64,000 bases of DNA from Dehalococcoidia bacterium (lineage in GTDB: Bacteria > Chloroflexota > Dehalococcoidia > UBA2979): positions 951,140 through 1,015,139 of the forward strand of contig OZ252046.1 in assembly GCA_965247895.1 (NCBI GenBank), given 5' to 3'. The position numbers were made by a program, and so were the translations under genes. The notes beneath the pieces are model-generated. The model saw nothing but the letters and a program-made list of their open reading frames with translations, was not told the DNA's origin and ran no database searches. Positions 1-64,000 of the stretch are shown here, piece by piece (position 1 is the stretch's first letter; each line of letters opens with the position of its first letter).

Positions 1-3000
1 TCACGATGATGGTGTCGCTGAGTGTCCCTGGGTCGGTGGCGGTGACGGTGACGGTGTGCGAGGGCACCGTCTCGTAGTCGAACATGGGGTTGGCGGCCAC
101 CCGTATCTGGCCGGTTGCGCTGTCCACCGTGAACTTGTCGGAGCCCGTCAGCGTGTAGCTCAGATTCCCTGCGTCCTCGGCGTCGTCGGCCACCACCCGC
201 TCCCCGACGGTGGCAGTGGCCCCTGCGTCCTCGGGCACGGAGCGCGTCGTGTTCGCAGCGGGGAACTCCGGGGCGGTGTTCACGGGCGGCTTGGCCTGGA
301 CACGGTTTCGCGAGACCGCGGAGATACTTATGTCCGTGTCCGGGCTGTATCCGTCCCTATACGTGGCGGTGGCGCGCAGGTAGTAACCGATGTCGCCTAC
401 GACCGGCGTGTAGCTGTCAGCCGTGGCGCCGCTGATCAGCTGCCAGCCGCTCCCCCGGCTCGTCGACCGCTCCCACTTCCACGTCGTCGACTGCACGATG
501 TCGGCGTCGGTCAGTGTCGCCGTGAACGGCGCCTCCACCTGCGGCTGCGGCGAGGAGAGGCCGAGCATCGCCCGTTCGTTCACATTCGTGACATCCACCG
601 TGACCCTCGTGACCGCTGAGCCGTTCGCATCCGTGGCCGTGACCTCCACTTCGTAGCTGTCCTTGGTCTCGTAGTTGAGGGCGCTCTCCGTCCGCAGCTG
701 GCCGCTGGTGGCGACGATCGCGAACGATGAGGCGTCGGCTCCGCCGAGCGTGTACGTGGTCGAGCCGTCCGTGGCCGCGGCCGTAACCGGCGGGCCGATG
801 TTCCTGTTCCGCGACGTGTTCTCCTCGACGGTGCGCGTGGTGCGGACGGACTGGAGCGCGAAGGACAGAGTCGCGATCGGCTCCGTCGAGAATTTGCCCG
901 TTCCCCGGATGCTCGTGATGACCCCCTGCGGGTCGGTGGCCGCGTTGCCCAGGGAGAACCCCGTGCCTTCCTCCGTGCCCGCGTCCCACGGGTAGAGGTT
1001 GACGGTGTGGGAGCGCAGCCAGCGGCCGCTGCTGTTGAGCAGGGGCAGGCCGGAAACGCCCACGAACCAGTCGGGGCTGGGGGCGACCATCGTGACCAGC
1101 GTGACGCGCGGGTGGGTGGTGGCAAGCGTGGGGTTGAGGCTCTGTGTGGCCGTTACCCCGCCCGTGTCCGTGCTGCCCTGGAACAAGCTGAGCGCCGTGG
1201 CCGGGTTGGCGCCGATGGCTGTCTGCACCTCGCTCCGCAGGGTCGTGATCGTTCCGTCCTCCGCCATCGACTCGACCCCGGCGCTGGCCGTCCCGCCGCT
1301 CGCGAGGAAGCTCACGCCTGCGTTGTGGACGGCGCCGGCGAGGCGGGAGAAGTGCGCGCCGCCGGGAACGCCGTCAGGCGTGACCTTGGCGTACCACTTG
1401 CCCTCGAACTCGACGTCATAGGTCGCTGTCGATGGGAACGGCGCGACGGGATCGCTCGCCGGGGGGGTCAGCGAGGTGTCTTGCCTCGTACGGGTCACCG
1501 TCACGATGTAGGTCCTGGTGCTTCCGTTCGCGGCTGTCACCCTGATGGTGATGACGTTCTGGCCCACCGACGGGTTCACCTGGTAACCGTCGGCATTGGT
1601 GTCGGCGTCGACGCGACCTACGAGCGTAGCCACGGCACCGGCATCGTTCTCGCTCGCGGTCACCGTGATCCCCGTCACGGTGTAGCCGACGGATGCCGTG
1701 TACCAGGTGACCTCAGTGTCGAAGGAGGGGCTGAGCCTTGCCCCGCTCAGTGACAGCGCGCTCAGGGTGGCGTCCGCGGAGAGGGGGGTGCCTGTGCCCG
1801 TGTCCGACCAGTCCCCGTCGCCGGCGCTGTTGGCTGCCCGCACCTCCACGTCGTAGGAGACGCCGTTGGTCAGCCCCGCGATGGTGTATTCCAGGTCGCC
1901 CGAGGTCCAGGCGATCACTTCGTCCCAGTTGGCGTCGGCCTTGTCCGTCGCGTCGGTGCGGATTGAGTGCACGTCGTAACGGGTAATGGCGGCGCCGCCG
2001 TTGGAGGCGGGCGCGCTCCATTGCACGGCGAGCTCCCCGTCGCCGGCGGTCACGGAAGAAACCCCCGGCACTCCGGGCACCACGGGGGGCTGCATCTGCT
2101 CGGCGGCCTCGCCGATGTTGTTATAGTTTTCGGCAGAGACGCGCACACTCGAGCCGGGCGCTGTGGCAGTCGTCTGGTGGGCGAGAGTCCCCGAAACATC
2201 GGTGATCTTCGCGGAACGGGTGTCGTCGTACTCCTGGTCCGCATCCTTCCACTCCACCCGGTAGGCGGTGATGGCTTCACCCCCGTCGTAGGCCGGCTTC
2301 TCCCAGGTCACCCGGCCGTCCGCGGCCAGGGCGACCGCTGCGGGAGCCTGGGGGACGCAGCCGCCGGCTCGCCATGGATTGCGGGTGGGGGCCCTGCCGT
2401 ACAGGGCCTCCGTTGCTCGCTGCCGATCGCAGTAGGCCCCGAATGCGTTCCGCAACGCGAACGCAGCCGCGTGTTTCCATGCCCCCACGCCCTTGACATC
2501 AGTCCACACCTTTTCGAGGTCGTACTGCTTGTCGTATTTCGGATCCGTTGAGGTGTCATAGGGAACGGTGTCGTCCTCGTAGGTTGTGTCGAACCAGGCC
2601 GGCATTGTCTTGGCGAGGACGCTGTTGATCATGGTCAGTGTAGTTGCAGAGGGCGTATCTCCTGTTCTGGAACAAGGAGGGAAGTACGTCGAAAGAGAGC
2701 TTGCCACGGTGCCGCTCTCGACAGCATCGGCATAGAGCTCATGGATCTGACAGCCGGTTCCGCCCGCTACGAGGTCTGCAAAGTAGAGCCACGCGATGCC
2801 GCGACCCTCGGAGTCTCGTCCCATAAGCCGCGCTCCGGCATTGTAGACGTGGCCCAGCTCATGGAGATAGACGCCTGTGTCAGATGCGGCGTTATTACCA
2901 ATGTCAACGCGAGTGACTTCACAGGCAACCAGAGTCCCTATTCTTCTCGAACTGCAATCCAGGAAGACCCTGCTGTCGGAGACTGTTGCACCAATTGGAG

Positions 3001-3510
3001 TGTTTAAACGCCGCATGTAATCGTACAGCTCGCGCACCCATGGGTCGTCTGCTTCGTATGCGGCAACAACCCCCGTCTTCAGGAAGTGACCTCGTTGCTC
3101 ACTTTCGGACTGGGTTTTGAACCCAGGCGTACGAAGCTTGACATCGGTACCCAGGGTGACGAGGAGGGCGTAGAGCGTGTCCGCAGTCAGTCCCGTCAAG
3201 TCGAAGGTGACGGAGGTGCCGTTGGTCATCTTGCTCGTCACCAGGTCGGCGCCGTCGGGCTGGGCCCTGTACTTGAGAGCAACCGTCTGCTCCGTCGAGC
3301 CGGGATTGGCGATGGTGACTGTCACGCTCGCCGTCGTTCGTCCGGTCTCGCCGAACTCCACGCCGGTGATGTTCCCGCTTGGCGCAGCCGGCAGGTCGTA
3401 GGCATAGATCTTGACCTTCGCCTCATCGCCCACCCAGAGGGTGTTCCCGCTGGAGGTGACGCCCCACGGCGCCCCATTCTCGCGGGCCAGTTGTATCTCC
3501 GGGGGGGCTG
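1..3510 (-). CDS. C-terminal portion of giant secreted surface protein A: FN3-like modules, HEXXH Zn-metallopeptidase-like region, spondin_N-like domain, cadherin-like modules. The 3' end lies beyond the window start. Same gene as 3322..5499 after a +1 frameshift at the G7 run 3501..3507.
   Basis: Minus-strand frame with codon first bases at positions congruent to 1 mod 3 is open from 3510 to position 1. Hand translation gives ...PEIQLARENGAPWGVTSSGNTLWVGDEAKVKIYAYDL (a propeller blade)...VYLHELGHVYNAGARLMG (HEXXH)...ATYDVEFEGKWYAKVTPDGVPGGAHFSRLAGAVHNAGVSFLASGG...SPDWFVGVSGLPLLNSSGRWLRSHTVNLYPWDAGTEEG (spondin_N-like)...YETVPSHTVTVTATDPGTLSDTIIV (cadherin-like). It is absent from the ORF track because there is no stop codon inside the window. 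Confidence 0.6.
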
Positions 3511-5499
3511 CCGATCGCCGACACCGGCGGTACCCAGGGCATAGGCGAATATCCTGTCCAGGGCGTCGTCGGCGACCCACAGCGCGGACCCGTTGGACCA
3601 CATGCCCCTGGGTTGCATGTAGGAGGTGGCGAGGTCGCCCTCTTTCGTTGTGTCGCGCGCTCCGAAGGTACCGGTGCTGCCGATGTTGTAGGCGAAGACG
3701 TGCTCCCGGACGTGGCCTGCTATCCACATCGTGGTTCCGTCGGACCACACCCCCCTCGGGTGGCCATTCTCGGGCGCTATCTCGAAGCTCTTCGCGGTGT
3801 CGAGCCTTCCGAAGGGGCTGCCTGAGAGCGAATACGCGTACACCTTGTCGTCCTGCTCGTCGACTACCCACAAGGTGCCGCTGTTCACGTAGACGCCGCG
3901 TGGAGCGGCGTTCTCGCCGTCGAGCACGAAGCTCTTCGAGCTGACGAAGCCCTTGTTGCTCAGGTTGTAGGCGTCGACGCGGTCGCTGCCCCCCGTGGCC
4001 CTGTCGTACACGACCCACAGGGTGGCGCCGTCGGTCCCGATGCCGCGCATCTGCCCGATCCCGACCAGGGCAAGGTCACGCTGCGCCGGCCGCACCAGCA
4101 GCTCCGCGGTGACCTCGGTCCCGTCGGCGAAGGTGCTGTCGAGTGAGGCCTGGACCACGAGGCGCGGCGCCGATCGCGCCCCGGAGAGCGTGAAGTCGAT
4201 GGTCTGTCCGCCTGTCGCGTTGGTCGTGGACCATGCATCGGTGAAGGGCTCGCGGTAACGCAGGTACACCGTCTTGCTGGGGTTGGGGTAGCTGATGTCG
4301 GCGCGAATGGTGGCGGCGGTCTGCGTAGCGGAGACGAGGGACAGCGCGGATACGCTCGGGTCCGGCTTCGGCTGGTAGTAGGCGAAGACCTTCGATCCGC
4401 TGCGGCGGCCGTCCAGGATCCAGAGATACTCCCCGTCTCCCCACATGTCGCTGGCTCCCAGTGAGTCGACAGCATTGGCGTGAGCGGTGTTCAGCGGGAT
4501 ATTCAGGTGCGGCAGCGGGATGCCGACCCTCAGATCGAGGGCGTAGAGCATCCGGTCCCGGCCGTCGACCGCCCACATCGTCTGACCGTCGGACCAGATG
4601 CCGCTCAGGGCGTAGCTGCCGTCCTTGTGCAGGGTGATGTCCTTCGCCGTGTCGCGTCCGCCATACGGGCGTTCGTAGGCATAGGCGTCGTGCTGAGGGT
4701 AAACGACCCAGAACGTGTCGCTGTTGGCCCAGATGCCCTTCGCGTCGGAGTGGCCGCGGGCGAGCCTGAATTCCCTGCTCGATTGCCGGGAGCCGTCCGA
4801 AAGCTGGTAGGCGTAGGCTCGGAATTGGGACCGGTCCACGGCGTACAGGTAGGTCCCGTCGGACCAGAGGCCCCCTGGGCTGTGGTTGCCGAGGCCTGGG
4901 GTGATGTCTTTCGCCGTGTCGCGGTCGCCGTGCTGGGCGGCCGGTGTGCGCTTGTAGGCGAGAATCGTCGTCGAAGTGCCAAGAGTAAACCCGTCGGAGA
5001 TGACCCAGAGCGTGTTGGCGTCTCCCGCGATGCCCGTGGGAAGGTCGCTTCCGGCCAACGTGATGTCGAGATGCGCCGGCCGGTTCTGGAAGGTGCTGCT
5101 CTCGACGCCGGTCGCGAAGGTCGAGTCCGCCGACACCTCGATGTCGTAGTAGGCGTTCGCCGCCAACGCCGTGAGGCTGAAGGTCACGTCCCCCGCTTGC
5201 GACGCGTTGGCGGTCCACAACAACGCTCCCCAGTCGTCCTTGTCATGGAGAGAGAGCCGCAGATAGAACGTTCCCATCCCACTGACCGTCGCGGTGGCGG
5301 TCGCGGTGGTCCGGGCGCTGCTCGCCACTGTGCCGGCACTCACGGTGGCGGTCTGGGCGGAGACCGATGCGACACGACCACTCAGGGCTGCAAACACGAC
5401 AACAAGCAGCACAATGCCTATCAGGGTTGCGGAACGCGGCAGAGTGGCGCTCATACCCGCGCTTCGTGCCGGGAGCAGCCCACCGTGTTGCCGGAGCAC
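3322..5499 (-). CDS. N-terminal portion of giant secreted protein A: signal peptide plus at least 10 divergent WSDG-type (PD40/TolB-like) beta-propeller blades. The C-terminal ~60 aa of this ORF are out-of-frame junk after the G7 frameshift.
   Basis: 725-aa ORF in the track. N-terminus MSATLPRSATLIGIVLLVVVFAALSG...AQTA looks like a signal peptide. Repeats such as GIWSDGQTMWAVDGRDRMLYALDL, GVWSDGTTMWIAGHVREHVFAYNI and GMWSNGSALWVADDALDRIFAYAL. The Arg-rich tail ...DRQPPRRYNWPARMGRRGASPP follows the G7 run. Confidence 0.7.
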   Translation of the reverse strand: MLRQHGGLLPARSAGMSATLPRSATLIGIVLLVVVFAALSGRVASVSAQTATVSAGTVASSARTTATATATVSGMGTFYLRLSLHDKDDWGALLWTANASQAGDVTFSLTALAANAYYDIEVSADSTFATGVESSTFQNRPAHLDITLAGSDLPTGIAGDANTLWVISDGFTLGTSTTILAYKRTPAAQHGDRDTAKDITPGLGNHSPGGLWSDGTYLYAVDRSQFRAYAYQLSDGSRQSSREFRLARGHSDAKGIWANSDTFWVVYPQHDAYAYERPYGGRDTAKDITLHKDGSYALSGIWSDGQTMWAVDGRDRMLYALDLRVGIPLPHLNIPLNTAHANAVDSLGASDMWGDGEYLWILDGRRSGSKVFAYYQPKPDPSVSALSLVSATQTAATIRADISYPNPSKTVYLRYREPFTDAWSTTNATGGQTIDFTLSGARSAPRLVVQASLDSTFADGTEVTAELLVRPAQRDLALVGIGQMRGIGTDGATLWVVYDRATGGSDRVDAYNLSNKGFVSSKSFVLDGENAAPRGVYVNSGTLWVVDEQDDKVYAYSLSGSPFGRLDTAKSFEIAPENGHPRGVWSDGTTMWIAGHVREHVFAYNIGSTGTFGARDTTKEGDLATSYMQPRGMWSNGSALWVADDALDRIFAYALGTAGVGDRQPPRRYNWPARMGRRGASPPAGTPSGWAMRRRSRSMPTTCRLRQAGTSPAWSSARPDERRRA

Positions 5500-6329
5500 A
5501 TCGCCCGGCTCAGGGCAGCCTGCGCCCAGGCGCGATCCGGCGGGTGGCTAGCGAACAGCGAGCCGGCCAGGCTCGCGGCCCCTGGCACCGGAAGCCGTCC
5601 GGCGAGCACGCCACGGAGCAGCACGGCGCGGAAAGTGGAACCGGTGATCTGCGCCGAAGTCACGACGGTTCCCCCCCGCAAGAAGCGCCCCCGTGGGCGC
5701 CTAGCTAGGGCAACCTAGCACGGTCGTGTCGTTCAATCGATGCATATCCGTGATAAATACGTGAAACTTTGCTCAAACCCGTGAAGTTTTCGGTGAATCA
5801 AGTCCCATTGATGCTCACCACCAGCCTTTCACGGCACGCGCCCAGGGAACTCCAGCAGCGCATAGGCCAACCCGAAGGTGAGGGCGAGTCCTCCTCAGCC
5901 CGTCTCCGGCACGCTTGCTAGTGGCTGCTCTCCGGGCGCTCGGGTCGCGATCACAGGGGTGGTGCAGCGGCACGCGCACCGGGACGACAACGATGTCCAT
6001 GTCCGGACGCTGCACCCTGTCATCGATGTCGTGGAACGTCAGCTCGGCGCCGAATTGGGCGGCCGAGGCCCTCGCCGTGTCTTCGTGTGCCATGCAGACG
6101 GCCTTGAGCTCGTAGTCAGGGCAAAGAGGCCAGCGCTGGCACGCAGCACTCGATACGGTCACGCGGCTGGGCGCGGTGGACCCGGGGCTCGTGGCCATCG
6201 AGGCGGGCCGCATCGCCGACGGCCGCCGGGAGAGCGGCGTCGGGAATAGGACAACTTGGGCGGTTCGACCGCCCGAAGCCGAACCTGGCCGGCTACGACG
6301 CGCTGCTCGCCGCGAGCACGGGATGAGCA

Positions 6330-6513
6330 CGCCCATGACCGAGCAGGCGGCCGCGCTGACGCCCCGCACACTTGACTTCACTCGCTGCGGCATACGGCCG
6401 GGAGCCAGTCGATCCTGGCCGGCACCGACCTGCTGACGGTTTCGCGGCGGCTCGGGCAAGCGTCCGCGTCGTTCACGATGGATATCTACGGGCACATGTT
6501 GCCGGGGCAATAG
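6330..6513 (+). pseudogene. Degraded C-terminus of a tyrosine recombinase (phage integrase): box II and catalytic Tyr region, disrupted by an indel
   Basis: One frame reads ...LHSLRHTAGSQSILAGTDLLTVSRRLGQASASFTMDIYGHMLPGQ* (HxLRH...Y motif), ending at a stop at 6511..6513. The preceding ALTPRTL segment is in another frame, with a stop between them. Removing a 14-nt stretch would restore ALTPRTLRHTAGS. Confidence 0.5.
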
Positions 6514-6551
6514 GGCCCTGCGGCCGAGGCGCTTGACCACTTGATCAGGTG

Positions 6552-6617
6552 AATGGCCCCAGAATGGCCCCAGATTGGCCCCAGATTGGCCCCAGGATGG
6601 CCCCAGGATGGCCCCAC
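6552..6617. repeat. 11-bp tandem repeat, 6 units (aatggccccag / attggccccag / gatggccccag), between the integrase remnant and the tRNA-Glu 3' end
   Basis: Read directly at 6552..6617. Confidence 0.8.
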
Positions 6618-6664
6618 TCGAGCCGACTGAACGAACGCATGCGGCCGAAAAGGCCTGTGAACGT

Positions 6665-6740
6665 TGGTGCCCCCAAGGGGGTTCGAACCCCTGTTTCCAC
6701 CTTGAAAGGGTGGCGTCCTGGTCCCCTAGACGATGGGGGC
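6665..6740 (-). tRNA. tRNA-Glu (anticodon TTC)
   Basis: Reverse complement of 6665..6740 is GCCCCCATCGTCTAGGGGACCAGGACGCCACCCTTTCAAGGTGGAAACAGGGGTTCGAACCCCCTTGGGGGCACCA. 7-bp acceptor stem, anticodon loop CTTTCAA, T-loop GGTTCGAA, 3' CCA. Confidence 0.9.
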
Positions 6741-11091: not shown

Positions 11092-11099
11092 GCTGTCGC

Positions 11100-11400
11100 C
11101 CCCCCGAGGGCGCTCCGATCCCCTCTCCCCTGGCGGGAGAGGGTTAGGGTGAGGGGGACTCCGAGGCAGATCGCGTGTCGCCTGCCGGGGGGCTGCGCCC
11201 CCCACACCCCATCCCGGACGAGCGCGCTGCGCGGCTCCGGCCCACCCACCCGCCCTCGGATGTTCTTTCTGTGGGGGCTCCGCCCCCACGCCCCCGCCCG
11301 GATCGGCAGCCGGAACACAGCCTCGAGGGCGCGCCTTCGGATCCCCTCTCCCGCGAGGGGAGAGGGAGCCGGAGCGCCCTCGGAACGGGGTTTTCGCAAA
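11100..11400. repeat. Two copies of a REP-like GC-rich palindromic element (cccctctccc-N4-5-gggagagggg cores inside longer imperfect palindromes)
   Basis: First copy: cgagggcgctccgatcccctctcccctggcgggagaggg. Second copy: cgagggcgcgccttcggatcccctctcccgcgaggggagagggagccggagcgccctcgg. Confidence 0.5.
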
Positions 11401-12071: not shown

Positions 12072-12187
12072 TGGTCCTCAGTTGGGGCGTGCGCGCTCGC
12101 GCGCGCCGCTCACAGCCATCGTAGCGGATGCACGCTCAGAGGCGAGGGCGAACGGACCGCAACGGCGCCCTTCGATAGGATGGAGGC

Positions 12188-12712
12188 ATGGAGCAGGCCG
12201 TCGCCGCGACCGGATCGGACGAGGACGCCGCGCGTCCGGGCGCGATGCGCGGGCAGCTCCGGCGCTTCGCCGGCATCGCCGCGGCGGTCGTGATCCTCGA
12301 CCAGCTGACGAAGGCGCTCGTGCGCGCCTGGCTGAGCGAGGGCGAGACCTGGCCCGAGGGCTTCGATCTGATCCGCATCTCGCACGTCGAGAACTCCGGG
12401 GCCGCGTTCGGGATCCTGCAGGATGGAGGCCCGTTCCTGATCGCCAGCTCGATCCTCGGCGCCATGATCGTGCTGATCTTCCTGCGCGCAGCCCCGCCCG
12501 GCGACCGCCTCTACGAGACGGCGCTGGCGTTGGTGCTCGGCGGCGCGGTCGGCAACCTGATCGACCGGCTCTTCCGAGGCACGGTGACGGACTTTATCGA
12601 CCCCACCCACTACCCCTCCTTCAACATCGCCGACTCCTCGATCGTGGTCGGCGTGTTCGCGCTCGCCGTGATCTCCCTCTTCCGTCCCGGCAGCAAGCCG
12701 GAGAGCGCCTGA
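12188..12712 (+). CDS. lspA: Lipoprotein signal peptidase (signal peptidase II)
   Basis: Motifs VENSGAAFG, GGAVGNLIDR and FNIADS. Confidence 0.9.
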   Translation: MEQAVAATGSDEDAARPGAMRGQLRRFAGIAAAVVILDQLTKALVRAWLSEGETWPEGFDLIRISHVENSGAAFGILQDGGPFLIASSILGAMIVLIFLRAAPPGDRLYETALALVLGGAVGNLIDRLFRGTVTDFIDPTHYPSFNIADSSIVVGVFALAVISLFRPGSKPESA

Positions 12713-13662
12713 TGCAGCAGGAACGCTTCGCCGCAGCGCGCACGGACCGGCTCGACCGGCTCGTCGCCGAGCAGCTCGTGCACCTCTCGCGCAACCAGGC
12801 GCGGCGGCTGATCGACGAGGGCCGCGTCGAAGTCGCGGGCGAGCCGCGGACCCACGCCGGCCGCGAGGTCGCCGAGGGGACCGCGATCACCGTCCGGCTC
12901 CCGGCGCAGCCGGACCTCGACGCGATGGCGCTCGACGTGCCGCTCCAGGTGCTGTTCTCGGACGAGCACACGCTGATCATCGACAAGCAGGCGGGGCTGC
13001 TGGTGCATCCCGTGCAGGGCCGACCGGCGGTCACCCTGATACACGCCGTGCGCACCCGCTACCCCGAGGTGCAGGAGATCGGCGGGACGCGCTCCGGCCT
13101 CGTGCACCGCCTCGACCGCGACACCTCCGGGGTGATCGCCTTCGCACGCTCCGCCGCCGCGCGCGACGCGCTGCGCGCGCAGTGGAAGGCGCGCGAGACG
13201 CTCAAGATCTACCTCGCCATCGCCGAGGGCGTCGTCGAGCCGCGCCGCGGCCACATCGATGCGCCGCTCGGCCCCGACCCGGCGAACCCGACCCGCCGTG
13301 CCGTCGTCGAGCGCGGCGACTCCGCGTTCAGCGAGTACCGAGTGCTGGAGCAGTACGGCGAGGAGGCCGCCTTGCTCGAAGTCCGTATCCTCACCGGCCG
13401 CACGCACCAGATCCGCGTCCACCTGCAGGCGACCGGCCACCCGATCCTCGGCGACGGCGTCTACGGCCGGCCCTCGCCGCGGATCGCGAGGCAGGCGCTG
13501 CACGCTCGCCGGCTCGGGCTGTGCCTGCCCTCGAGCGGCGAGTGGCGCGAGTTCGAGGCGCCGCTCCCGCAGGACCTCAGCGACGCCATCGACGCGCTGC
13601 GCGCCGACCACGGCGTGGAGGCGCAGCCGCTGGCGGCGTCCGGCACGGGAGGCCCGCTATGA
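12712..13662 (+). CDS. rluD: RluA-family 23S rRNA pseudouridine synthase (RluD-like) with S4 domain
   Basis: MQQERFAA... start ATG overlaps the lspA stop (TGATG). Motifs HRLDRDTSGV and GRTHQIRVH. The long ORF 12082..13662 is an out-of-gene N-terminal extension. Confidence 0.85.
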   Translation: MQQERFAAARTDRLDRLVAEQLVHLSRNQARRLIDEGRVEVAGEPRTHAGREVAEGTAITVRLPAQPDLDAMALDVPLQVLFSDEHTLIIDKQAGLLVHPVQGRPAVTLIHAVRTRYPEVQEIGGTRSGLVHRLDRDTSGVIAFARSAAARDALRAQWKARETLKIYLAIAEGVVEPRRGHIDAPLGPDPANPTRRAVVERGDSAFSEYRVLEQYGEEAALLEVRILTGRTHQIRVHLQATGHPILGDGVYGRPSPRIARQALHARRLGLCLPSSGEWREFEAPLPQDLSDAIDALRADHGVEAQPLAASGTGGPL

Positions 13663-15143
13663 GCGTCCGCGTCCGCTACGCGCCCAGCCCCACCGGCGAC
13701 CCGCACGTCGGCAACATCCGCACGGCGATCTGGACCTGGCTGCACGCCCGCCGCCACGGCGGCGCCTTCATCCTGCGCATCGAGGACACCGACCAGTCGC
13801 GCGCCGTCGAGGGCTCCGTCGAACGCATCGAGGACTCGCTGCGCTGGCTCGGCCTCGAGTGGGACGAAGGCCCCGGGGCCGGAGGCGACTACGGCCCCTA
13901 CGTGCAGTCGCAGCGCCTCGATCGCTACCACGCCGCCAGCGAGGCGCTGCTTCGCGACGGCCACGCCTACCGCTGCTTCTGCACCCCGGACGACCTGCGC
14001 ACGATGCGCGAGCGCCAGCGCGCCGCCAGCCGGCCGCAGGGCTACGAGGGCGCCTGCCGCGACCTCGACGCCGCCCGGGCCGCCGAGCGCGCCGCCGCCG
14101 GCGAGCCGCACGTGATCCGCTTCCGCATGCCGCGCGAGGGCGTCACGACGTTCAGCGACCTGATCCGCGGCGAGATCCGCTACGAGAACCGCCTGCTCGA
14201 CGACCTCGTGCTGCTCAAGTCGGACGGCTTCCCCACCTACCACCTCGCCCACGCCGTCGACGACCACGCGATGGCGATCACGCACGTCACCCGAGGCGAC
14301 GAGTGGATCCCCTCGACGCCGCGCCACGTGCGGATCTTCGAGGCGCTCGGCTACGAGCCGCCGATCTTCGTGCACACGCCGGTGATCCTCGGGCCGGACG
14401 GGGGCAAGCTCTCCAAGCGCCACGGCGCGCAGTCCGTGCTCGACTACGCCGACCAGGGCTACCTGCCCGAGGCGCTGCTCAACTTCCTCGCGATCATGGG
14501 CTGGGCGATCGACGACAAGACCGAGATCCTCTCGGGCGAGGAGATGGCCGCCGCCTTCGACCTCGCCGACCTCAACCCCGCGCCCGCCGCCTTCAACAGC
14601 GAGAAGCTGGAGTGGATGAACGGCGTCTACATGCGCCAGCTTCCCGAGGCCGACCTGACCGCGCGCTTCGCCGAGCGCCTCGACCGCGACCTGCCGGACT
14701 CGGTGGAGCGGCCGGCCGACCGCGAGCTGGTCGCGCAGTTCACCCCGCTGATCCGCGAGCGCGTGAAGCTGCTCTCCGAGGTCGCCGGCCTGACCGACTT
14801 CTTCTTCGCCGAGGACGTCCCCGTCGCCGAGCCGGACGAGTTCCTCGGGCGCTCCTTCCGCAAGCAGCCGGAGCAGGCCGCGCCCGCGCTCGCCGCCGTC
14901 GCGACGGCGCTGGAGCCGCTCAGCAGCGACTGGACTACCGAGACCCTCGAGGCCGCACTGCGCGCGCTCGCCGAGGAGTTGGGCGTGCGCGCCGGCGACC
15001 TCTTCATGCTCTGTCGCGTCGCCGTCACCGGAAAGCGCATCACCCCGCCGCTCTTCGAGACGATGGAGATCGTCGGCCCCGCCCCCTCCCTCAAGCGCCT
15101 CGCCGCCGCCGAGGCGGCCCTGCGCGCCGCCTACCCCGCCTGA
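13659..15143 (+). CDS. gltX: Glutamyl-tRNA synthetase
   Basis: HIGH motif PSPTGDPHVGN and KMSKS-like KLSKRHG. Start ATG overlaps the rluD stop (ATGA). Confidence 0.9.
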   Translation: MSVRVRYAPSPTGDPHVGNIRTAIWTWLHARRHGGAFILRIEDTDQSRAVEGSVERIEDSLRWLGLEWDEGPGAGGDYGPYVQSQRLDRYHAASEALLRDGHAYRCFCTPDDLRTMRERQRAASRPQGYEGACRDLDAARAAERAAAGEPHVIRFRMPREGVTTFSDLIRGEIRYENRLLDDLVLLKSDGFPTYHLAHAVDDHAMAITHVTRGDEWIPSTPRHVRIFEALGYEPPIFVHTPVILGPDGGKLSKRHGAQSVLDYADQGYLPEALLNFLAIMGWAIDDKTEILSGEEMAAAFDLADLNPAPAAFNSEKLEWMNGVYMRQLPEADLTARFAERLDRDLPDSVERPADRELVAQFTPLIRERVKLLSEVAGLTDFFFAEDVPVAEPDEFLGRSFRKQPEQAAPALAAVATALEPLSSDWTTETLEAALRALAEELGVRAGDLFMLCRVAVTGKRITPPLFETMEIVGPAPSLKRLAAAEAALRAAYPA

Positions 15144-15297: not shown

Positions 15298-15490
15298 ATA
15301 CGCCGTATACGATTTCGGGGCCGTACTGGACAAGCTGTCCATGAACGCTGTCCGGTACGGAGCGCGGGCGCAGGGGGTAGGAGCCGCCCGGACGAGCTAG
15401 AAGAGCGAGTCTCGTTCAACGAGCAGCCGCGACTGGGGAGGTCGATATGGAGAGCTTGCTTAGCTGCTGCACGACTGAGGTGCTGGCACA

Positions 15491-17122
15491 GTGAGCACAA
15501 TAGACGGCGCTATAGACCTCACTATACCTGGGCTATCTGGAAAGCCTTTGAGCATCACAATACAAACTGGTGAATCCATCTTTGTTATGGGTGCGAATGG
15601 AACAGGTAAATCAACTCTCATACATCACCTCAATAACGAGCACAACGCGCGAGCGCGATTCATACCTGCTAATCGTCAAACATGGATGGAATCTAACTCC
15701 GTTACTATGAACTCGCGCGACAAGGAACAGACAGAACGGAATATAAGACAAGGGACCACCCGTGCTGACGCCCGGTTCCGCGACAACTATTCTGGCGCGC
15801 GAGTCAGCTTGTCCATAGCGGAGCTGCTGGCAGCTGAGGCCGCGCGAGATCACGACATCGCGATTGCGATTGATCGCGGGAAGCCCAAACGTGCGCGGAA
15901 GATATCAAGGAACCGTCCGTCGCACTTGAGAACGATTTCTTCGCTCTTACAGTCATCAGGTCTTCCAATCACAATAAGCGCTCACAATGGTGAGGAACTC
16001 CGAGCCGTCAAGCACGGACAAGAGTATAGTATCGAACAACTATCGGACGGTGAGCGCAATGCCTTTTTACTTGCCGCAACCATCCTCACTACCGAACAAG
16101 GAACGCTTTTCCTGTTGGATGAGCCTGAGAGGCATCTGCATAGGTCCATTTCAGGAAGGCTGATTTCGTCGCTCATTGCGGAGCGAGCCGACTGTTCGTT
16201 TGTAATTGCCACACACGACATTACACTTCCGAGCAAGGAAGAGGATGCCAGAGTCATTCTCTTGACGGCTTGTCAATTCAGCAACGGGCAAGCTATCGGG
16301 TGGGATGCGAAGCTCCTTCCGCAGGGCGAAGCCATAGACGAGGATATCACGAGGGATATATTGAGCTCGCGCAAGAGGATTTTGTTCGTCGAAGGCGTGG
16401 ATGGTAGCCTCGATATTGAGCTCTACCGTATCGCCTTCTCCAGCGAGAACGATATTGACGTCGTGCCCAAGGGTGGGTATCCGGCAGTCGAATCTTCGGT
16501 TAGGGCGATCCGCGGGTCCGAAGCGCTCTATTGGATGGAAGCCTTCGGTATTATCGATCGGGATGGCCGCGCAGACGATGAAGTGTCAGCCTTACGCAAG
16601 ACTGGAGTGTACCCGCTGGAGGTGTACTCCGTGGAATCGATCTACTACCATCCAAAAATCCAGAGGGAGGTAGCGGAACACTTATACGAGAGCCCAGAGG
16701 ACAAGGTTACGGCAGCTCGCGCAGCCGCCATCGAAGAGATAGCCAAGCAAAAGGAAGGCTTGGCCACGCGGGCTCTTGAGAGGATGGTGCGCCGAGCTAT
16801 CCTCGAACGAATCCCTGGACGAGAGGCTATCTCGGCAGAACTGTCTGTCCGAATTGAGATCGACATGACGGACCTACCACAAGATCCGCGTGCAGATCTG
16901 GAGCGAGCGATCGACGACAACGATCTCGAGTACATCATGAAGCACTACCCGATTAAGCCGGGCAACGTCCGGGGAGTGATCGCGCGACAACTCGGGTTCA
17001 CGAACCGGACGGCATACGAGCGGAATGTCCGCAAGGTGCTCCGTCACAGGCCTCAAGCGTTGGAGTTCGTCAGGTCCTTGCTTGGAGGCCTCCCTTCGGA
17101 CCTTACCGCTTCAGGGTCATAG
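15491..17122 (+). CDS. Fused ABC-type ATPase + TOPRIM-type nuclease domain protein (OLD / PARIS-AriAB-like), on a low-GC islet
   Basis: Walker A GANGTGKST, ABC signature LSDGERNAF, Walker B LFLLDEPERHLH, H-loop ATHD. The C-terminal half has TOPRIM-like motifs ILFVEGVDG (conserved Glu) and GIIDRDGR (DxD). GC is about 45% against about 70% for the flanks. GTG start. Confidence 0.8.
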   Translation: MSTIDGAIDLTIPGLSGKPLSITIQTGESIFVMGANGTGKSTLIHHLNNEHNARARFIPANRQTWMESNSVTMNSRDKEQTERNIRQGTTRADARFRDNYSGARVSLSIAELLAAEAARDHDIAIAIDRGKPKRARKISRNRPSHLRTISSLLQSSGLPITISAHNGEELRAVKHGQEYSIEQLSDGERNAFLLAATILTTEQGTLFLLDEPERHLHRSISGRLISSLIAERADCSFVIATHDITLPSKEEDARVILLTACQFSNGQAIGWDAKLLPQGEAIDEDITRDILSSRKRILFVEGVDGSLDIELYRIAFSSENDIDVVPKGGYPAVESSVRAIRGSEALYWMEAFGIIDRDGRADDEVSALRKTGVYPLEVYSVESIYYHPKIQREVAEHLYESPEDKVTAARAAAIEEIAKQKEGLATRALERMVRRAILERIPGREAISAELSVRIEIDMTDLPQDPRADLERAIDDNDLEYIMKHYPIKPGNVRGVIARQLGFTNRTAYERNVRKVLRHRPQALEFVRSLLGGLPSDLTASGS

Positions 17123-17169
17123 CCAAGTCGCTGCGGCGTGGAGCGCTCTCGTTGGCACCCGACCACGAC

Positions 17170-17195
17170 GAGCCCCCGGCTCTCACCGGGGGCTC
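17170..17195 (+). terminator. Perfect 10-bp hairpin (gagcccccgg-ctctca-ccgggggctc) 48 nt after the stop of the 15491..17122 gene. No U-tract follows.
   Basis: Read directly. Confidence 0.35.
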
Positions 17196-17517
17196 CCCGC
17201 CTCGTAGGTCCGGGGGCCGCTGTCAGTCCTCGTCCCACTCGTGTTCATGGGGCTCCGCGCCGCCGGGGTGCTCGTGGACGGCGTAGAGCCACTCATCGTC
17301 CTCGTGGGCGTGCCGGACCGGGCTGTTCCCCGGCGGCGGGGCGCGGGCGATGTCGGACTCCCGAACGGGGCCGAATTCCCCCTGGTACTTGTCCCGCCAT
17401 CGCTTGGTCGGCACGGCTGCACCTTCTTCTTGAGCCGCATCTCGATCTGGTAGAGCGCGCCCGCGAGCGTGCGGTGCGGGTTGGCCTCGACGAACATCGT
17501 AGCCGCCCTGCCGGGCG

Positions 17518-18891
17518 ATGCGGCGCGGGCGCTATGCTCCCGCCATGAGTCGCGAGCCCGCGGCCCCCGTGGACGACGACGAGCCGCGATCACCGCCGCT
17601 GCCCGCCGGGAGGCGTCGCGGCGTCTTCTGGGGCTGGTGGATCGTCGTCGGGGCCGTCGTCGCGCAGTTCGCGGCGATGGGCGCCGGCGGCGGGATCGCC
17701 GGCGTCTTCCTCCGCCCGATGACCGAGGACCTCGGCTGGACCGCCGCCGAGTACACGCTCGGCGGCTCCTCCGCCTTCCTGCTCGGCGGCGTCGCCGGCT
17801 TCGTGCTCGGGCCGCTCGTCGACCGCTACGGGGCGCGGCCACTGATGCTTGCCGGCGCCTGCATCTACGCGGCCGCATTCCTCGCCATGTCACGCGTCGA
17901 GGAGCTGTGGCAGTTCGTCGCGCTCTCGATGATCGCCGGCGGCGCCGGCCTCTCGATGGTCGGGCCGCTGGTCGTAAACGCGACGCTCTCGAAGTGGTTT
18001 GTCGTGCGGCGCGGATGGGCGATCGCGCTCGGCTCCTCGGGCATCTCGTTCGCCGGGCTGATCATGCCGCTGACGATGACACGCATCGTCGACTCGGCCG
18101 GGTGGCGCGACGCCTACGCGATCCTCGCCGTGGTCGTGTTCGCGATCGTCGTGCCGGTCGCCCTCGTGATGCGCCGCCAACCCGAGGACTACGGGCTGCT
18201 GCCGGACGGCCTCGAGCCCGGCGCGACCGCGGACATCGACCGCCTCGCGGCCGAGGCGCAGGCGCGCGACGCCGCGAACTCCTACACGCGCGGCGAGGCG
18301 TTGCGCACGCCCGCCATCTGGCTCCTCGTCGTCGGCTACGGGCTGAACATCCTGGCGCTTTCGGCGGTGCTGGTGCACGCCATTCCGTTCATGACGGACA
18401 ACGGCTTCACGCGCGCCGAGGCCGCGCTGGCGCTCGCGGTCAACGGCGGCGCGAACCTCAGCTCGAAGTTCGTGTGGGGCTACTGCCTGCAGCGGGTGCA
18501 CGCCCGCTACCTCTCGGCGACGGCGCTCTCGATCTCGGCGACGGGCGTGGTGACCATGCTCGTCGCGGCGCAGCTGGGCGCGCTGCCGCTGATGTTCCTC
18601 GGGTTCTTCCTCTGGGGCTTCGGGTTCGGCGGCACGGTGCCGTTGAGCGAGTTCATCTGGGCGACGTACTTCGGGCGCGTGCACATCGGGGCCGTGCGAG
18701 GCGTCGGGGCGCCGTTCACGATCGTCTTCGGGGCGCTGGGGCCGATCCTCGGCGGGCTGTACTTCGACGCGGTCGGTTCGTACGACGGCGTGTTCGCGGC
18801 GTTCGTCGTCGCCTACCTCACGGGCGCCCTCGCGATCCTCGCCTCACGTGAGCCGCCGCCGAAGCGGCTGCCCGCCGAGGCAGCAGGGTAG
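17518..18891 (+). CDS. MFS transporter (oxalate/formate antiporter-like)
   Basis: 12 transmembrane-like hydrophobic segments. An alternative start is MSREP at 17545. Confidence 0.8.
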   Translation: MRRGRYAPAMSREPAAPVDDDEPRSPPLPAGRRRGVFWGWWIVVGAVVAQFAAMGAGGGIAGVFLRPMTEDLGWTAAEYTLGGSSAFLLGGVAGFVLGPLVDRYGARPLMLAGACIYAAAFLAMSRVEELWQFVALSMIAGGAGLSMVGPLVVNATLSKWFVVRRGWAIALGSSGISFAGLIMPLTMTRIVDSAGWRDAYAILAVVVFAIVVPVALVMRRQPEDYGLLPDGLEPGATADIDRLAAEAQARDAANSYTRGEALRTPAIWLLVVGYGLNILALSAVLVHAIPFMTDNGFTRAEAALALAVNGGANLSSKFVWGYCLQRVHARYLSATALSISATGVVTMLVAAQLGALPLMFLGFFLWGFGFGGTVPLSEFIWATYFGRVHIGAVRGVGAPFTIVFGALGPILGGLYFDAVGSYDGVFAAFVVAYLTGALAILASREPPPKRLPAEAAG

Positions 18892-32494: not shown

Positions 32495-33088
32495 GTGCGA
32501 GTTCTGTACGTCCTTGAAGACAACGCGCATGCGCAGTTCGTCCCACCACTCTTTCGGAGGATTGCGCGAGACGAAGTTGTAGATCTCGCCGAGCAGGAAC
32601 TAACACCGATGCGAGGCGACGGCCGTACGATTAGCGGCCTGCGGAGACTGCTCGCCGACATCAGGACTGGCAGCCCCACGCGGCCCGATCTGATCGTCGT
32701 TGGCATTGACGCGGACTGCAGCTCGCGAGGTGAGCGCGATCGGCAGGTCCACCGCGCATGCGAACTCGAAGGTTACGAGGGCGACGTCATCGTCGCCGAG
32801 CCGGACCCGCACATCGAGATTTGGTACCTCGCCGATCCTGTGCTCCTGCAGCAGTTACTCCAAACGCCAAGTCTCTCTGCTATACCGGACATTCGTTGCA
32901 AGAAGGACGAGTTCAAGAAGGAACTGCGCTCAATCGCGCTGTCGAGCGGGGCGCCCGCACCCCTAGGCGGAGTAGAGTACGGGCCGGAGATCGCGGAAGG
33001 CATGAACCTTTACCGGGCCGGCCGCAGTGTCGCGTCGCTCGGCCGGTTCGTCGACGCGGCGCGCGCACGCCTTCAAGCGCACGTGTAG
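32495..33088 (+). CDS. Small (197 aa) TOPRIM-like protein (E...DxD). Partner of the upstream ATPase.
   Basis: GTG start directly after the ATPase TAG stop. Conserved Glu in LYVLEDN (E8) and IVVGIDADCSS (D72, D74), spaced like a TOPRIM core. No other recognisable domain. Confidence 0.6.
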   Translation: MRVLYVLEDNAHAQFVPPLFRRIARDEVVDLAEQELTPMRGDGRTISGLRRLLADIRTGSPTRPDLIVVGIDADCSSRGERDRQVHRACELEGYEGDVIVAEPDPHIEIWYLADPVLLQQLLQTPSLSAIPDIRCKKDEFKKELRSIALSSGAPAPLGGVEYGPEIAEGMNLYRAGRSVASLGRFVDAARARLQAHV

Positions 33089-48891: not shown

Positions 48892-49791
48892 GTGGCACAC
48901 CTCATCTTCGACGAACAGCAGGAACTGGACCGGCCAATCCTGATCGCGGCCTGGACCGGGTGGAACGACGCCGGCGAGTCCGCGACCGGCGCGATCCGCT
49001 TCATGCTGCGCCGCTGGCGCTCCAAGGCGTTCGCACACATCGACCCCGAGTACTTCTACGACTTCACCCAGGCCCGCCCCAAGGTGAAGCTCGAAAACGG
49101 CGAGCGCATCCTCGAGTGGCCGCAGAACAAGTTCTCGTCGCGGCGCCGCGAGGGCGACACGCCCGACCTCGTGCTGCTCGAGGGTGTGGAGCCGCACCTC
49201 TCCTGGAACGAGTACTCCGACACGATCATGGAGTGCTGCGAAGCGCTCGGTGTGAAGACCGTGATCACCCTCGGCGCGCTGCTCGCGGAGGCGAGCCACA
49301 CGCGCCCGATCCGCGTCTCCGGCAGCTCCGAGGACGCCGACCTGCGCGAGCAGCTTGGCCTCGAGCCTCCGCGCACGACGGGCTACCAGGGACCCACCGG
49401 GATCGTCGGCGTGCTCAACAACCGCCTCCGCGACGCCGGCTACCGCACGGCCTCGATGTGGGCGAACGTGCCGCACTACGTGAACGCCTCGCCGAACCCC
49501 AAGGGCGCGCTCGCCCTGCTCGAGCAGCTCAACTCCAGCCTCGCGCTCGACCTCAGCCTGCACGACCTGGAGGTCTTCGCCGCCCGCTTCGACGCACAGG
49601 TCGGAGCCGAGATCGCGAAGAACCCGGAGATGGCCGAGTACGCCCGCCGCATCGAGGAGCAGCTCGAGGAGGAAGAGGACGCTGCCGAGGCCGAGGACGC
49701 CTCGGACGGCGGCGCCAGCCTCCCCGACGCCCAGGACATGGTCGACGAGCTGGAGCGCTTCCTGCGCGAGCAGCGCAGCGACGAGGAATAG
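48892..49791 (+). CDS. PAC2-family protein (proteasome-assembly-chaperone-2-like, actinobacterial type)
   Basis: GTG start at 48892 in frame with the long artefactual ORF 47566..49791. The ILIAAWTGWNDAGES region is PAC2-like. Acidic C-terminal tail. Confidence 0.75.
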   Translation: MAHLIFDEQQELDRPILIAAWTGWNDAGESATGAIRFMLRRWRSKAFAHIDPEYFYDFTQARPKVKLENGERILEWPQNKFSSRRREGDTPDLVLLEGVEPHLSWNEYSDTIMECCEALGVKTVITLGALLAEASHTRPIRVSGSSEDADLREQLGLEPPRTTGYQGPTGIVGVLNNRLRDAGYRTASMWANVPHYVNASPNPKGALALLEQLNSSLALDLSLHDLEVFAARFDAQVGAEIAKNPEMAEYARRIEEQLEEEEDAAEAEDASDGGASLPDAQDMVDELERFLREQRSDEE

Positions 49792-49974
49792 CACAGAGCC
49801 GCTCGCCCGCGCGGCCGCCGTCCCTGGACTCCGCCCGCACCCAATCCCCGCATTGGACACAGCACTCAAGCGCCCCGTGATGCACCCGGGCAGCCTGATC
49901 TGGAACCGCACGCCCGCCGGCGACGTCAAGAACCCATCACACCCCGCATCGCAGCGGGGGGATGGGACAGCCCG

Positions 49975-52108: not shown

Positions 52109-52472
52109 ATGCGGATCAGTCGTCGCTCGTTCACTGCTCCGCTTCTGCTCGCAGCCGCGCTGACGGCGAGCGTCCTCGTCGTTGGGCGCGCTCGCCCTGC
52201 TCGAGCAGCTCAACCCCAGCCTCGCGCTCGACCTCAGCCTGCACGACCTGGAGGTCTTCGCCGCCCGCTTCGACGCACACGTCGGAGCCGAGATCGCGAA
52301 GAACCCGGCGATGGCCGAGTACGCACGCCGCATCGAGGAGCAAATCGAGGAGCAGGAAGAGGCGGAGGCAGACGAGGCCGCCTCGGAAGGCGGCGCCAGC
52401 CTCCCCGACGCCCAGGACATGGTCGACGAGTTGGAGCGCTTCCTGCGCGAGCAGCGCGACGGCGAGGAGTAG
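52109..52472 (+). repeat. Composite duplication scar. A 77-nt copy of the lipoprotein 5' end (52109..52185) is fused to a ~93%-identical copy of the PAC2 3' end (52186..52472; the native copy is at ~49505..49791).
   Basis: MRISRRSFTAPLLLAAALTASVLVV against MRIILRSFSPSLLLAAALTASVLVA. ORF 52182..52472 GALALLEQLNPSLALDLSLHDLEVFAARFDAH... against PAC2 KGALALLEQLNSSLALDLSLHDLEVFAARFDAQ... Confidence 0.75.
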
Positions 52473-52714
52473 CCGGGCGGGCTCCTCGGCGGGCCGCGGC
52501 CCTCATCAGCGGCCGTCGCGGCAGTCGATCCTCTGAGCCGAGTGCTTCGGCGGAGGGCCCCACGCGGCGGCCCCGGAGCGGCGCGTGCGGAACGCTGCGC
52601 CGGCGGGTGGCGCTGTGGTGATGGTTTCGTCTTTGCCGGGTTCCGGGGGAACGGAACGCCTGCCGGCGTCGTCGGGCATGCGCGCGGCGTAGCGACGCGC
52701 CGGGAAGGATCGGG

Positions 52715-53649: not shown

Positions 53650-55484
<1,835 letters not shown>

Positions 55485-55488
<4 letters not shown>

Positions 55489-56863: not shown

Positions 56864-56867
<4 letters not shown>
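55485..56867 (+). CDS. pyrC: Dihydroorotase
   Basis: GTG start overlaps the pyrB stop (GTGA). Motif DLHVHLREPG, and carbamylated-Lys / His metal-ligand regions (DHAPH). Confidence 0.85.
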
Positions 56868-57990
<1,123 letters not shown>

Positions 57991-57991
<1 letters not shown>

Positions 57992-58464: not shown

Positions 58465-58467
58465 CCC

Positions 58468-59229: not shown

Positions 59230-59300
59230 GCCCCGCGACCGCATCCGACGCCCCCGCGCCCCCCGGCGAGCCGTCAGGCAACCCGGAAAAGCCCCGCAAG

Positions 59301-62542
<3,242 letters not shown>

Positions 62543-62546
<4 letters not shown>

Positions 62547-63268
62547 CGCCCGAGAGCCGGCCGGGACGGCTCGGCGCCGTGCTCTTCGACCTCGATGGCA
62601 CGCTCGCCGATTCGATGCACTCGATCGCCGTGGCGCTCGCCGAGACGCTCGGCGAGCAGGGCTACCGCACGAGCCCCGAGGAGTTGCTGCCGCAGTTCGG
62701 GCCGGACATGCAATCGGTGATCCGGCGCGCCATCGGCGTCGACGAGGCCGAGGCCGGGCGCCTCTACAGCCTCTACCTGCCGAACTACTACGAGCGCTAC
62801 ATGCCCGACACGCCGCCGCTGCCCGGCGCGGGCGAGCTGCTGGATGACCTCGCGGCCCGGCTGCCGCTCGGCATCGTCACCTCGAAGCTCGAGGCGGGCG
62901 CACGCGCGCTGATCGCGAACCTCGGCTGGAGCGACCACTTCGGCCCGATCGTCGGGCGCGACACGACCGGCATCATGAAGCCTCTGCCGGAGCCGCTGCT
63001 CCACGCCCTCGCGGAGCTCGCGGTCGAGGGCGAGCACGCGGCGTACGTCGGCGACACCGAGGAGGACATGCAGGCCGCCCTCGCGGCCGGGGTCGCGGTC
63101 CGTGTCGGCGTCACGGTGATTCGCAGCGAGCAGCAACTGCGCGAGGCGGGCGCGACCGCCGTCTGCCGCGACCTGTTCGCGGTCCGCGCGCTGCTCAACG
63201 CCGCCATCGACGGGCTGCCCGGCACACAGCCCCCCGCCGCGCCGGCGTCCGGGAGCGCGCCGGCATGA
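62543..63268 (+). CDS. HAD-superfamily hydrolase (phosphoglycolate phosphatase-like)
   Basis: Motif I FDLDGTL, motif II IVTSK, motif IV GDTEED. Confidence 0.8.
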
Positions 63269-64000
63269 GCGGCGCGGCGTCCGGCCGCAGCTCGCTCGCG
63301 GGGCTGCTCGGGCAGTTCGGGCGTCTCGGCGCCACCGCCTTCGGCGGCCCGGCGGCGCACGTCGCGATGATGGAGGACGAGTTCGTGCAGCGGCGGCGCT
63401 GGCTCGACCGCGACACGTTCGCGCGCGCCCTCGCCGCGACGAACCTCGTGCCCGGCCCCAACTCCACCGAGATGGCGATCCACCTCGGCTACCGCCGCCG
63501 CGGCGTGCCCGGGGCGATCGCCTCGGGCAGCGCCTTCATCCTGCCCGCCGCGCTCGCCGTCGCCGTGCTCGCCTGGGCCTACTTCCAGTGGGGCACGACG
63601 CCGCGCGCCGACGACCTGTTCGCGGGCATCCGTCCCGCCGTCGTCGTGCTCGTCGCGCTCGCCGCCTGGCGGCTGCGCGGCCCCGCCGCGCGCAACCCGC
63701 TGTCGATGGTCCTCGCGGCCTCAGCCTTCGCGATCGCGCTGCTCGCACCGCGCTGGGAGGTGATCGCGCTGCTCGGCGCGGGCGTCGTCGCGCTGCTCGC
63801 GAGCGAGCACGGACCGCGACAGCGACTCCAGCGCGCTGTGGTCGCCCTCCCCGCGCCGCTGCTCCCGCTGGCGCTGCCCGCGCTCGCCGTCACGCTGCCC
63901 GAGGTCGTGCCGATCGCGCTCATTCACCTCAAGGCCGGGGCGCTGCTCTTCGGCGGCGGCTACGTGATCATCCCGCTGCTGCAGCCCGACGCCGTCGCGC
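63265..64000 (+). CDS. chrA: Chromate transporter (CHR family), 5' partial; runs off the window end
   Basis: FGGPAAHVAMMEDEFVQRRRWL...GPNSTEMAIHLGY. Not in the ORF track because there is no stop codon inside the window. Confidence 0.75.
   Translation, partial: MSGAASGRSSLAGLLGQFGRLGATAFGGPAAHVAMMEDEFVQRRRWLDRDTFARALAATNLVPGPNSTEMAIHLGYRRRGVPGAIASGSAFILPAALAVAVLAWAYFQWGTTPRADDLFAGIRPAVVVLVALAAWRLRGPAARNPLSMVLAASAFAIALLAPRWEVIALLGAGVVALLASEHGPRQRLQRAVVALPAPLLPLALPALAVTLPEVVPIALIHLKAGALLFGGGYVIIPLLQPDAVA

Follow-up and report, generated by a model that had tools for sequence, protein, structure and literature searches.

The window analysed here is the whole stretch of 64,000 nucleotides from contig OZ252046.1 of a Dehalococcoidia bacterium. 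It carries five frame-breaking lesions, four 1-bp deletions and one 11-bp tandem duplication, and all of them lie in envelope genes. The broken genes encode three secreted or surface proteins (called genes A, B and C here), an RND-type transporter of the MMPL family and a lipoprotein of the PGA_cap (capA-like) type. The original prediction, made from the letters of the stretch, had placed frameshifts in these five genes and had described such shifts as concentrated in accessory and surface genes. Each of the five exists when checked against homologues, and the concentration is borne out, with 5/5 lesions in envelope genes and 0/41 genes broken elsewhere. We think it probable that the lesions are real, recent, strain-private loss-of-function mutations that were filtered by selection, in other words ordinary gene loss. 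The broken genes and their lesions are as follows.

5454 to beyond position 1, minus strand: gene A, encoding a giant secreted surface protein; frameshifted; it leaves the window at the left end.
3499-3500, minus strand, next to the G7 run at 3501-3507: lesion of gene A; one base missing, with a frame switch.
25439-26631, plus strand: PGA_cap (capA-like) lipoprotein gene; a GTG start, then a signal peptide and a lipobox.
25452-25481, plus strand: lesion of the PGA_cap gene; an extra 11-bp copy of GCCTGCGGCGA from codon 5, giving 2.7 copies.
37826 to 35656, minus strand: gene B, for a secreted repeat protein of about 711-723 residues; frameshifted.
37321, minus strand: lesion of gene B; a 1-bp deletion, TT to T, which changes the coding strand from GACCTTGCG to GACCTGCG.
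About 44452 to 38007, minus strand: gene C, for a surface protein of about 2150 residues; frameshifted, with Pfam matches on both pieces.
42625-42628, minus strand: lesion of gene C; a C4 run on the coding strand (G4 on the plus strand) with one base fewer than in relatives.
46925 to 44659, minus strand: MMPL (RND-type) transporter gene; 755 residues if repaired, frameshifted at about codon 145.
46489/46490, minus strand: lesion of the MMPL gene; a 1-bp deletion.

The window was compared with about 40 informative loci from related metagenome contigs and metagenome-assembled genomes (MAGs), which were gathered by exact-product look-ups and one genome scan. No exact match was obtained for the products malic enzyme, FAS1_DH, a 253-residue protein, the metallophosphoesterase, PAC2, P0002 and the N-terminal fragment of MMPL. 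Nucleotide identity to these relatives is 93-98% in the species-level group and 75-92% for other species. They cover the window in the following way.

6.6-21.8 kb of the window: relatives L009-L018.
21.8-40.8 kb: relatives L001-L008.
35-58 kb: relatives L028-L033.
48.6-64 kb: relatives L019-L027.

Genes in the window were called by codon score, and the gene calls of the relatives were supplied with the loci. Frameshifts in the relatives were scored by tracking the frame gene by gene. Raw blastn indel lists were dropped, as they were too noisy and held many compensating indel pairs in divergent stretches. When the protein from the FAS1_DH region was compared with species-representative genomes, the close relatives were all named "MAG: Dehalococcoidia / Chloroflexi bacterium", the best being 98% identical in amino acids and about 93% in nucleotides. 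Several related MAGs are named as SB066x bins, and one hit as Candidatus Poriferisodalis, names that hint at a sponge-associated lineage.

Collinear intact orthologues of the broken genes exist in close relatives, and the in-frame state was seen in 7/7 of them for gene B, 9/9 for MMPL, 3/3 for gene C and 7/7 for the PGA_cap gene; homologues of gene A span the junction without a gap. There is one lesion per gene. Repair restores 755 codons in MMPL, 723 in gene B, 393 in the PGA_cap gene, 2148 in gene C and at least 1849 in gene A, with no internal stop. The single lesions and the full read-through on repair indicate that the lesions are young. The four 1-bp events change runs from 2 to 1, from 2 or 3 to 1 (MMPL), from 3 to 2 and from 5 to 4 bases.

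In the PGA_cap gene, the open reading frame (ORF) downstream of the lesion matches PF09587 over profile positions 1-254 of 255 (E = 2.4e-71, 240.7 bits, cut-off 27), which assigns the product of 25439-26631 to the PGA_cap/CapA-like family, with a predicted role in poly-gamma-glutamate synthesis. Direct sequence comparison showed GCCTGCGGCGA at 1.7 copies in 7/7 relatives, all lacking the extra copy. The duplication sits between two 8-bp direct repeats and is a classic product of replication slippage, not a typical consensus error. The catalytic domain is still open downstream, and the native start, the signal peptide and the lipobox are now out of frame with it. Relatives encode 392 residues from the same GTG, and the repaired window product has the lipobox LLLLAAC. 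An apparent frameshift polymorphism among strains, with calls of 312 and 392 residues, was rejected; the DNA of the region is identical, and the calls differ in the gene caller's choice of start only.

MMPL, gene C and gene B, three of the five broken genes, are neighbours on the same strand. The MMPL gene is a firm member of its family (PF03176, E = 2e-57, 195 bits, cut-off 20.5) and is 97% identical to P0001 over 755 residues. The base missing from the window is present in 9/9 relatives, species-level outgroups among them. The gene is intact, full-length and syntenic at 14 related loci, which comprise several GTDB species-representative genomes and same-species metagenome contigs; the word "accessory" in the original prediction is therefore too loose for it. 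Private nonsynonymous to synonymous changes in MMPL number 8:16 in the window against 2:23 in L028 and L030 together (P = 0.037), and the corresponding ratio in gene B, 4:9, is not elevated.

Gene B is made of propeller blades, a cadherin-like domain, AEPVET linker repeats and SH3-like C-terminal repeats. It is intact in seven relatives. The extra T at the lesion site was found in 7/7 relatives and also in 6/6 in the raw blastn comparison, and a tblastn search with the 711-residue orthologue from L028 put the frame switch at 37317. The window is near-identical to L003, L005 and L007 around this lesion. In L003, an insertion sequence (IS) of the IS21 type adjoins gene B (16234-18476).

Gene C has a signal peptide, LRR, SWM repeats, cadherin, propeller blades and SH3-like repeats. 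L029, L031 and L042 (3/3) have one extra base at the lesion site and a single frame across it. Adding one C to the window gives 2155 open codons from the preceding stop and 2148 from the GTG at 44452. Within L029 (6400-10000; on the contig of L023, which is named 13x), the frame of MMPL breaks elsewhere, near codon 430, and that of gene C near codon 1500. Over the LRR part, gene C of L029 is only 63% identical in amino acids, and either error or independent decay of the MMPL/gene C module is possible there. Tandem linker repeats (AEPVET, PAADET, TPAPTPTA), long and in frame, occur in both gene B and gene C alongside repeated SH3-like modules, at 35950-36750 and 38030-39250. These repeats cross-match at 75-90% nucleotide identity and are a likely origin of length variation between strains. 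Mis-assembly between paralogous repeats was rejected as a source of the lesions, because at the lesions the identity between the repeats of the three giant genes is only 65-77%, which is too low to confuse long reads.

Gene A has Pfam matches to Spondin_N, cadherin, cadherin-like and fn3 domains, and it also shows a signal peptide, beta-propeller-like WSDG/YAY blades and an HExxH motif. One added base opens the frame over the length given above. P0242 (70% identical) and P0241 (59%) align gaplessly over the junction. In the close homologues P0391 and P0393 the sequence at this point is DRQPPREIQ, and the missing base is therefore placed in a CGN arginine codon beside the G7 run. The shift had been put down to the G7 run; it does adjoin the run, whose own length is probably unchanged. 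The N-terminal fragment, P0386, is found on one contig only. The left end of the window, in which gene A lies, also holds two further features.

6665-6740, minus strand: tRNA-Glu(TTC), identified by ARAGORN.
6328-6510, plus strand: relic of an integrase (tyrosine recombinase) beside the tRNA-Glu, seen in six-frame translation, with about 57 C-terminal residues left.

Similarity to relatives ends about 80 bp past the 3' end of the tRNA-Glu, and the alignments of L009-L018 begin at 6583-6598. In these alignments, window positions 1-6583, left of the tRNA-Glu, and 15370-17508 are without a counterpart in relatives. Positions 1-6583 look like a strain-specific island bearing gene A. The integrase relic matches PF00589 over profile positions 116-168 of 172 (E = 5e-4; 20.2 bits, under the gathering cut-off of 27.1) and shows the HxLRH and Y motifs (HSLRHT...IYGH), the remainder of the gene being missing or out of frame. 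It had been listed among the frameshifted genes; the remnant exists, and it is truncated rather than simply frameshifted.

The other 41 genes (40.1 kb) have the same ORF length in the window as their orthologues in clean relatives. They include malic enzyme, an ABC pair, lspA, rluD, gltX, two MFS, ECH, six SDRs, esterase, ADH, 5'-3' exonuclease, PAC2, comB (PF04029), pyrR, pyrB, pyrC, carA, carB and HAD. The claim that gltX, lspA, rluD, the malic-enzyme gene, pyrR, pyrB, pyrC, carA, carB, comB and the SDRs read through cleanly is thus confirmed. Two of them serve as controls.

13659-15143, plus strand: gltX, intact, 494 residues, the same length in seven clean relatives; its breaks are confined to contigs L016-L018 (6-11x).
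59301-62546, plus strand: carB, intact, 1081 residues, as long as in relatives; L021 (4x) is the one contig in which it is broken.

A three-piece frameshifted MMPL gene at 12185-15134 was considered and rejected; relatives show lspA, rluD and gltX there, separate and intact, with overlapping stop and start codons. It had also been argued that random homopolymer errors should reach carB or gltX as well. This argument does not hold, as gltX has no run of six or more and carB has one. Coding runs of seven or more number only two, both in gene A, and no lesion alters a long run.

The bias towards envelope genes exceeds chance only moderately, and all bias and spectrum statistics were calculated once the pattern was known. 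Of 57.6 kb of coding sequence, 17.5 kb (30%) belongs to the five broken genes, and the probability that all five events fall there is 0.0026, in a class defined by the events themselves. With an envelope/membrane class set in advance, which adds the intact MFS, ABC2, lspA, chrA and SH3 genes, the share is 42% and P = 0.014. Homopolymers are denser in the broken genes, and a null weighted for this gave, for the four 1-bp events, P = 0.042 (runs of at least 5) or 0.016 (at least 4). Errors that fall regardless of gene function do not describe the data well, with P = 0.0026-0.042 depending on the null. The relative positions of the lesions are about 0.24 (gene A), 0.01 (PGA_cap), 0.23 (gene B), 0.28 (gene C) and 0.19 (MMPL). 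All five are within the first 28% of their genes, for which P is about 0.002 under uniform positions, computed after the fact.

The sister contigs provide an empirical picture of what assembly errors look like. The labels in contig names (2x-131x) were taken as the depth reported by the assembler. Contigs named 2-13x carry frameshifts at about 1 per 10-15 kb, and these fall in gltX (three contigs, three sites), carB, pyrC, pyrR, HAD, chrA, ABC2, MFS and ChsH2, and also in MMPL and genes B and C. No frameshifts in the same genes were found in the contigs named 17x, 23x and 131x, nor in unlabelled ones (up to 2.65 Mb). At the nucleotide level, 20 private frameshifting indels in low-depth contigs comprised 16 insertions and 4 deletions; many lie outside runs, and most are in housekeeping-type genes. 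By comparison, the 1-bp events of the window are 4/4 deletions, against 4/20 in the sister contigs (Fisher P = 0.0066). Envelope genes take 5/5 events in the window, against 4 in such genes and 16 elsewhere in the relatives (P = 0.0024), which cover surface genes less than the window does. Contigs of 0.85-0.9 Mb in this data set stand at 8-13x, and one of 3.5 Mb at 131x. Exact-sequence look-ups found the window proteins, truncated fragments included, on one public contig only, of 3,579,381 bp, which is in NCBI and ENA; its length suggests good depth.

Real gene decay is thus the best supported of the three options that the original prediction had left standing (decay, phase variation, poorer assembly or polishing), since private 1-bp deletions and a tandem duplication are unlike the errors of the sister contigs. 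The lesions would then reside in the DNA and not in the consensus alone. Frameshifts under strong purifying selection would be removed, leaving the remaining window genes clean, while large, fast-evolving envelope or host-contact proteins may tolerate loss, or loss may even be favoured. Once one member of a co-oriented module was lost, the other members could become dispensable. Stepwise decay of a single module would fit the arrangement of MMPL, gene C and gene B, which are adjacent and co-oriented. An IS3-type element lies inside gene C of L028 (14395-15527), and P0391, a homologue of gene A, continues at its C-terminus into an IS integrase (a fused rve-type sequence); these insertions indicate that giant surface genes are truly disrupted in nature. 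Old, real relics share the window, namely the integrase fragment and an 81-residue malic-enzyme fragment.

Several points weigh against this reading. The truncated and the repaired alleles are on no other contig, and the lesions therefore lack replication; among public proteins no exact match was found for the repaired products of MMPL, gene B and PGA_cap, and no intact sister haplotype. The MMPL gene is conserved and syntenic across species, and its loss is less expected than that of a variable surface protein. Selection accounts less well for the roughly 25 kb of clean non-essential enzyme genes (SDRs, GNATs, MFS). The five events per 64 kb equal the rate in the 11-13x sister contigs, the sister assemblies behind the spectrum comparison were possibly made differently from the window's, and the statistics, as stated, are post hoc. 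The authors of a long-read metagenome assembler regard truncated proteins in such assemblies as in general errors (PMC13087279).

We therefore weighed the possibility that the lesions are consensus or polishing errors of a long-read metagenome, concentrated in strain-variable regions, and we consider this possible, if on balance unlikely. Conserved genes would have been polished with reads of co-occurring sister strains (97-98% identical) at high effective depth, whereas divergent surface genes (83-93% identical) would rest on their own reads, and run-length miscalls would survive there. The samples do contain many strains side by side, divergence is greatest in the broken genes, so that fewer sister-strain reads could aid their polishing, and all four 1-bp events shorten a run. 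The frameshift density of the 2-13x contigs resembles that of the window, and the conservation of MMPL and the lack of replication fit errors as well. The sister spectrum, dominated by insertions that are often outside runs, does not match four deletions out of four, however, and the 11-bp duplication does not fit at all. The window's contig measures 3.58 Mb, and the contig at 131x is clean, as are the unlabelled ones, which reach 2.65 Mb. The gene B site, being near-identical to L003, L005 and L007, is not strain-unique sequence. In a variant of this explanation, reference-guided frameshift correction mended only genes that are well matched in databases; homologues of MMPL and PGA_cap abound there, and such correction would have mended both.

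The remaining explanations take the sequence as correct. The lesions could be real and yet not independent, if selection had led a symbiont strain to shut down a whole surface module, for example to escape recognition by host or phage. Such a module would take in the block of MMPL, gene C and gene B, together with the adhesin of gene A on the tRNA-Glu island and the cap-like lipoprotein. This would explain why the breaks lie in the first 28% of the genes and why the genes are intact in clean sister genomes, and we consider this reading improbable. Phase variation, with the lesions as "off" states of contingency loci slipping at simple repeats, appears very improbable. The targets are of the right surface or envelope type, each gene is hit in its 5' quarter, the gene A lesion abuts a G7 run and the PGA_cap lesion changes the copy number of an 11-bp unit. 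Yet no hypermutable tract is present at any lesion, the runs being 2-5 bases and the 11-mer standing at 1.7 copies in relatives, and the G7 run itself is probably unaltered. Every informative relative has the one in-frame length at each site, with no on/off polymorphism, and ten G6/C6 runs in other genes are stable. Programmed recoding, by ribosomal -1 frameshifting or transcriptional slippage, would leave the genes functional, and we give it almost no credence. All four 1-bp lesions would need a -1 shift, and a C7 run in the gene A mRNA adjoins its lesion, but no X XXY YYZ slippery heptamer is in frame at any lesion site. The orthologues are single-frame in all relatives, so the shift is not conserved, and the PGA_cap lesion adds 11 bases.

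The window has several other features, some of them strain-variable. The 64-kb window has a GC content of 63-74% and three tRNA genes. The malic-enzyme fragment (PF03949; 10846-11091, plus strand) is present in all ten relatives beside the intact malic-enzyme gene and is an old relic; the spacer beside it (11099-11400) has many C7, G6 and C6 runs and is strain-variable. The strain-variable insert at 15370-17508 holds a defence-like ABC/AAA_21 and DUF4435 protein directly after tRNA-Gln. Another, at 31193-33088, holds a defence-like AAA_15/AAA_21 ATPase followed by a weak DUF4276 match, and the pair is not in L003. A 290-bp direct repeat (49503-49792 and 52184-52473; 92% identical, gapless) encloses a 2.4-kb segment with a gene for an SH3-domain protein, and a 96-residue ORF at 52182-52472 duplicates the C-terminal third of PAC2. 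In relatives, the slot between the repeats has other genes, such as those for a 723-residue protein in L022 and an RCC1-repeat protein in L025. Frameshift flags for PAC2 and the 96-residue ORF in relatives were false and due to this paralogous repeat. In the pyrimidine operon, a gene for a 246-residue NucS_C/DUF7669 protein stands between pyrC and carA in L019-L021, L023 and L024, and it is not in the window (56867-56889), L022 or L025.

The public protein collection splits the broken genes into fragments (P0361, P0362, P0370, P0371 and P0386), and the five genes warrant flags as possible pseudogenes instead of silent splitting. As a method, the use of low-coverage sister contigs as an empirical error spectrum offers a check that needs no reads and separates real lesions from consensus errors. 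If the preferred reading of real, recent loss is true, the window would be a further case in which a strain has lost large host-contact proteins and an envelope transporter, here in an uncultured member of the Dehalococcoidia, and such behaviour would be expected.

The lesions can be compared with four known systems. Simple-sequence contingency loci underlie the phase-variable surface genes of Haemophilus, Neisseria and Campylobacter. As in those, surface genes are switched off here by small length changes near the 5' end, but the lesions lack long homopolymers or multi-copy repeats, and tract length is constant among 7-9 relatives. Watson and Warr reportedly described, in 2019, indel errors that truncate predicted proteins in long-read assemblies. 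The single-base run-length changes that split genes, and a density as in low-coverage sister contigs, are alike; the errors of the sister contigs are mostly insertions and hit housekeeping genes, whereas the window has deletions and an 11-bp duplication, spares 41 other genes and belongs to a 3.58-Mb contig. Eukaryote-like repeat proteins (LRR, cadherin, fn3) occur in sponge-associated bacteria, Chloroflexi included. Genes A, B and C likewise combine LRR, cadherin, fn3 and Spondin_N and are strain-variable, although the finding here concerns frameshifts in such genes and not their function, and several related MAGs bear names that suggest a sponge origin.

The closest parallel is with young frameshift pseudogenes, which are commonest in the surface, transport and mobile-element genes of host-associated lineages such as host-restricted Salmonella, Shigella and Mycobacterium leprae. 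The window differs in that its five events lie in 64 kb of one MAG, known from its assembly only, that the MMPL target is conserved across species and that there is no sign of genome-wide reductive evolution. It resembles these cases in its single small indels in otherwise intact ORFs, with intact orthologues in close relatives, in the enrichment of large envelope genes with essential genes untouched, in the IS insertions of sister strains and in the excess of deletions over insertions. Whether the lesions are real or are errors of the consensus, the phenomenon is of an already known kind and involves no new mechanism.

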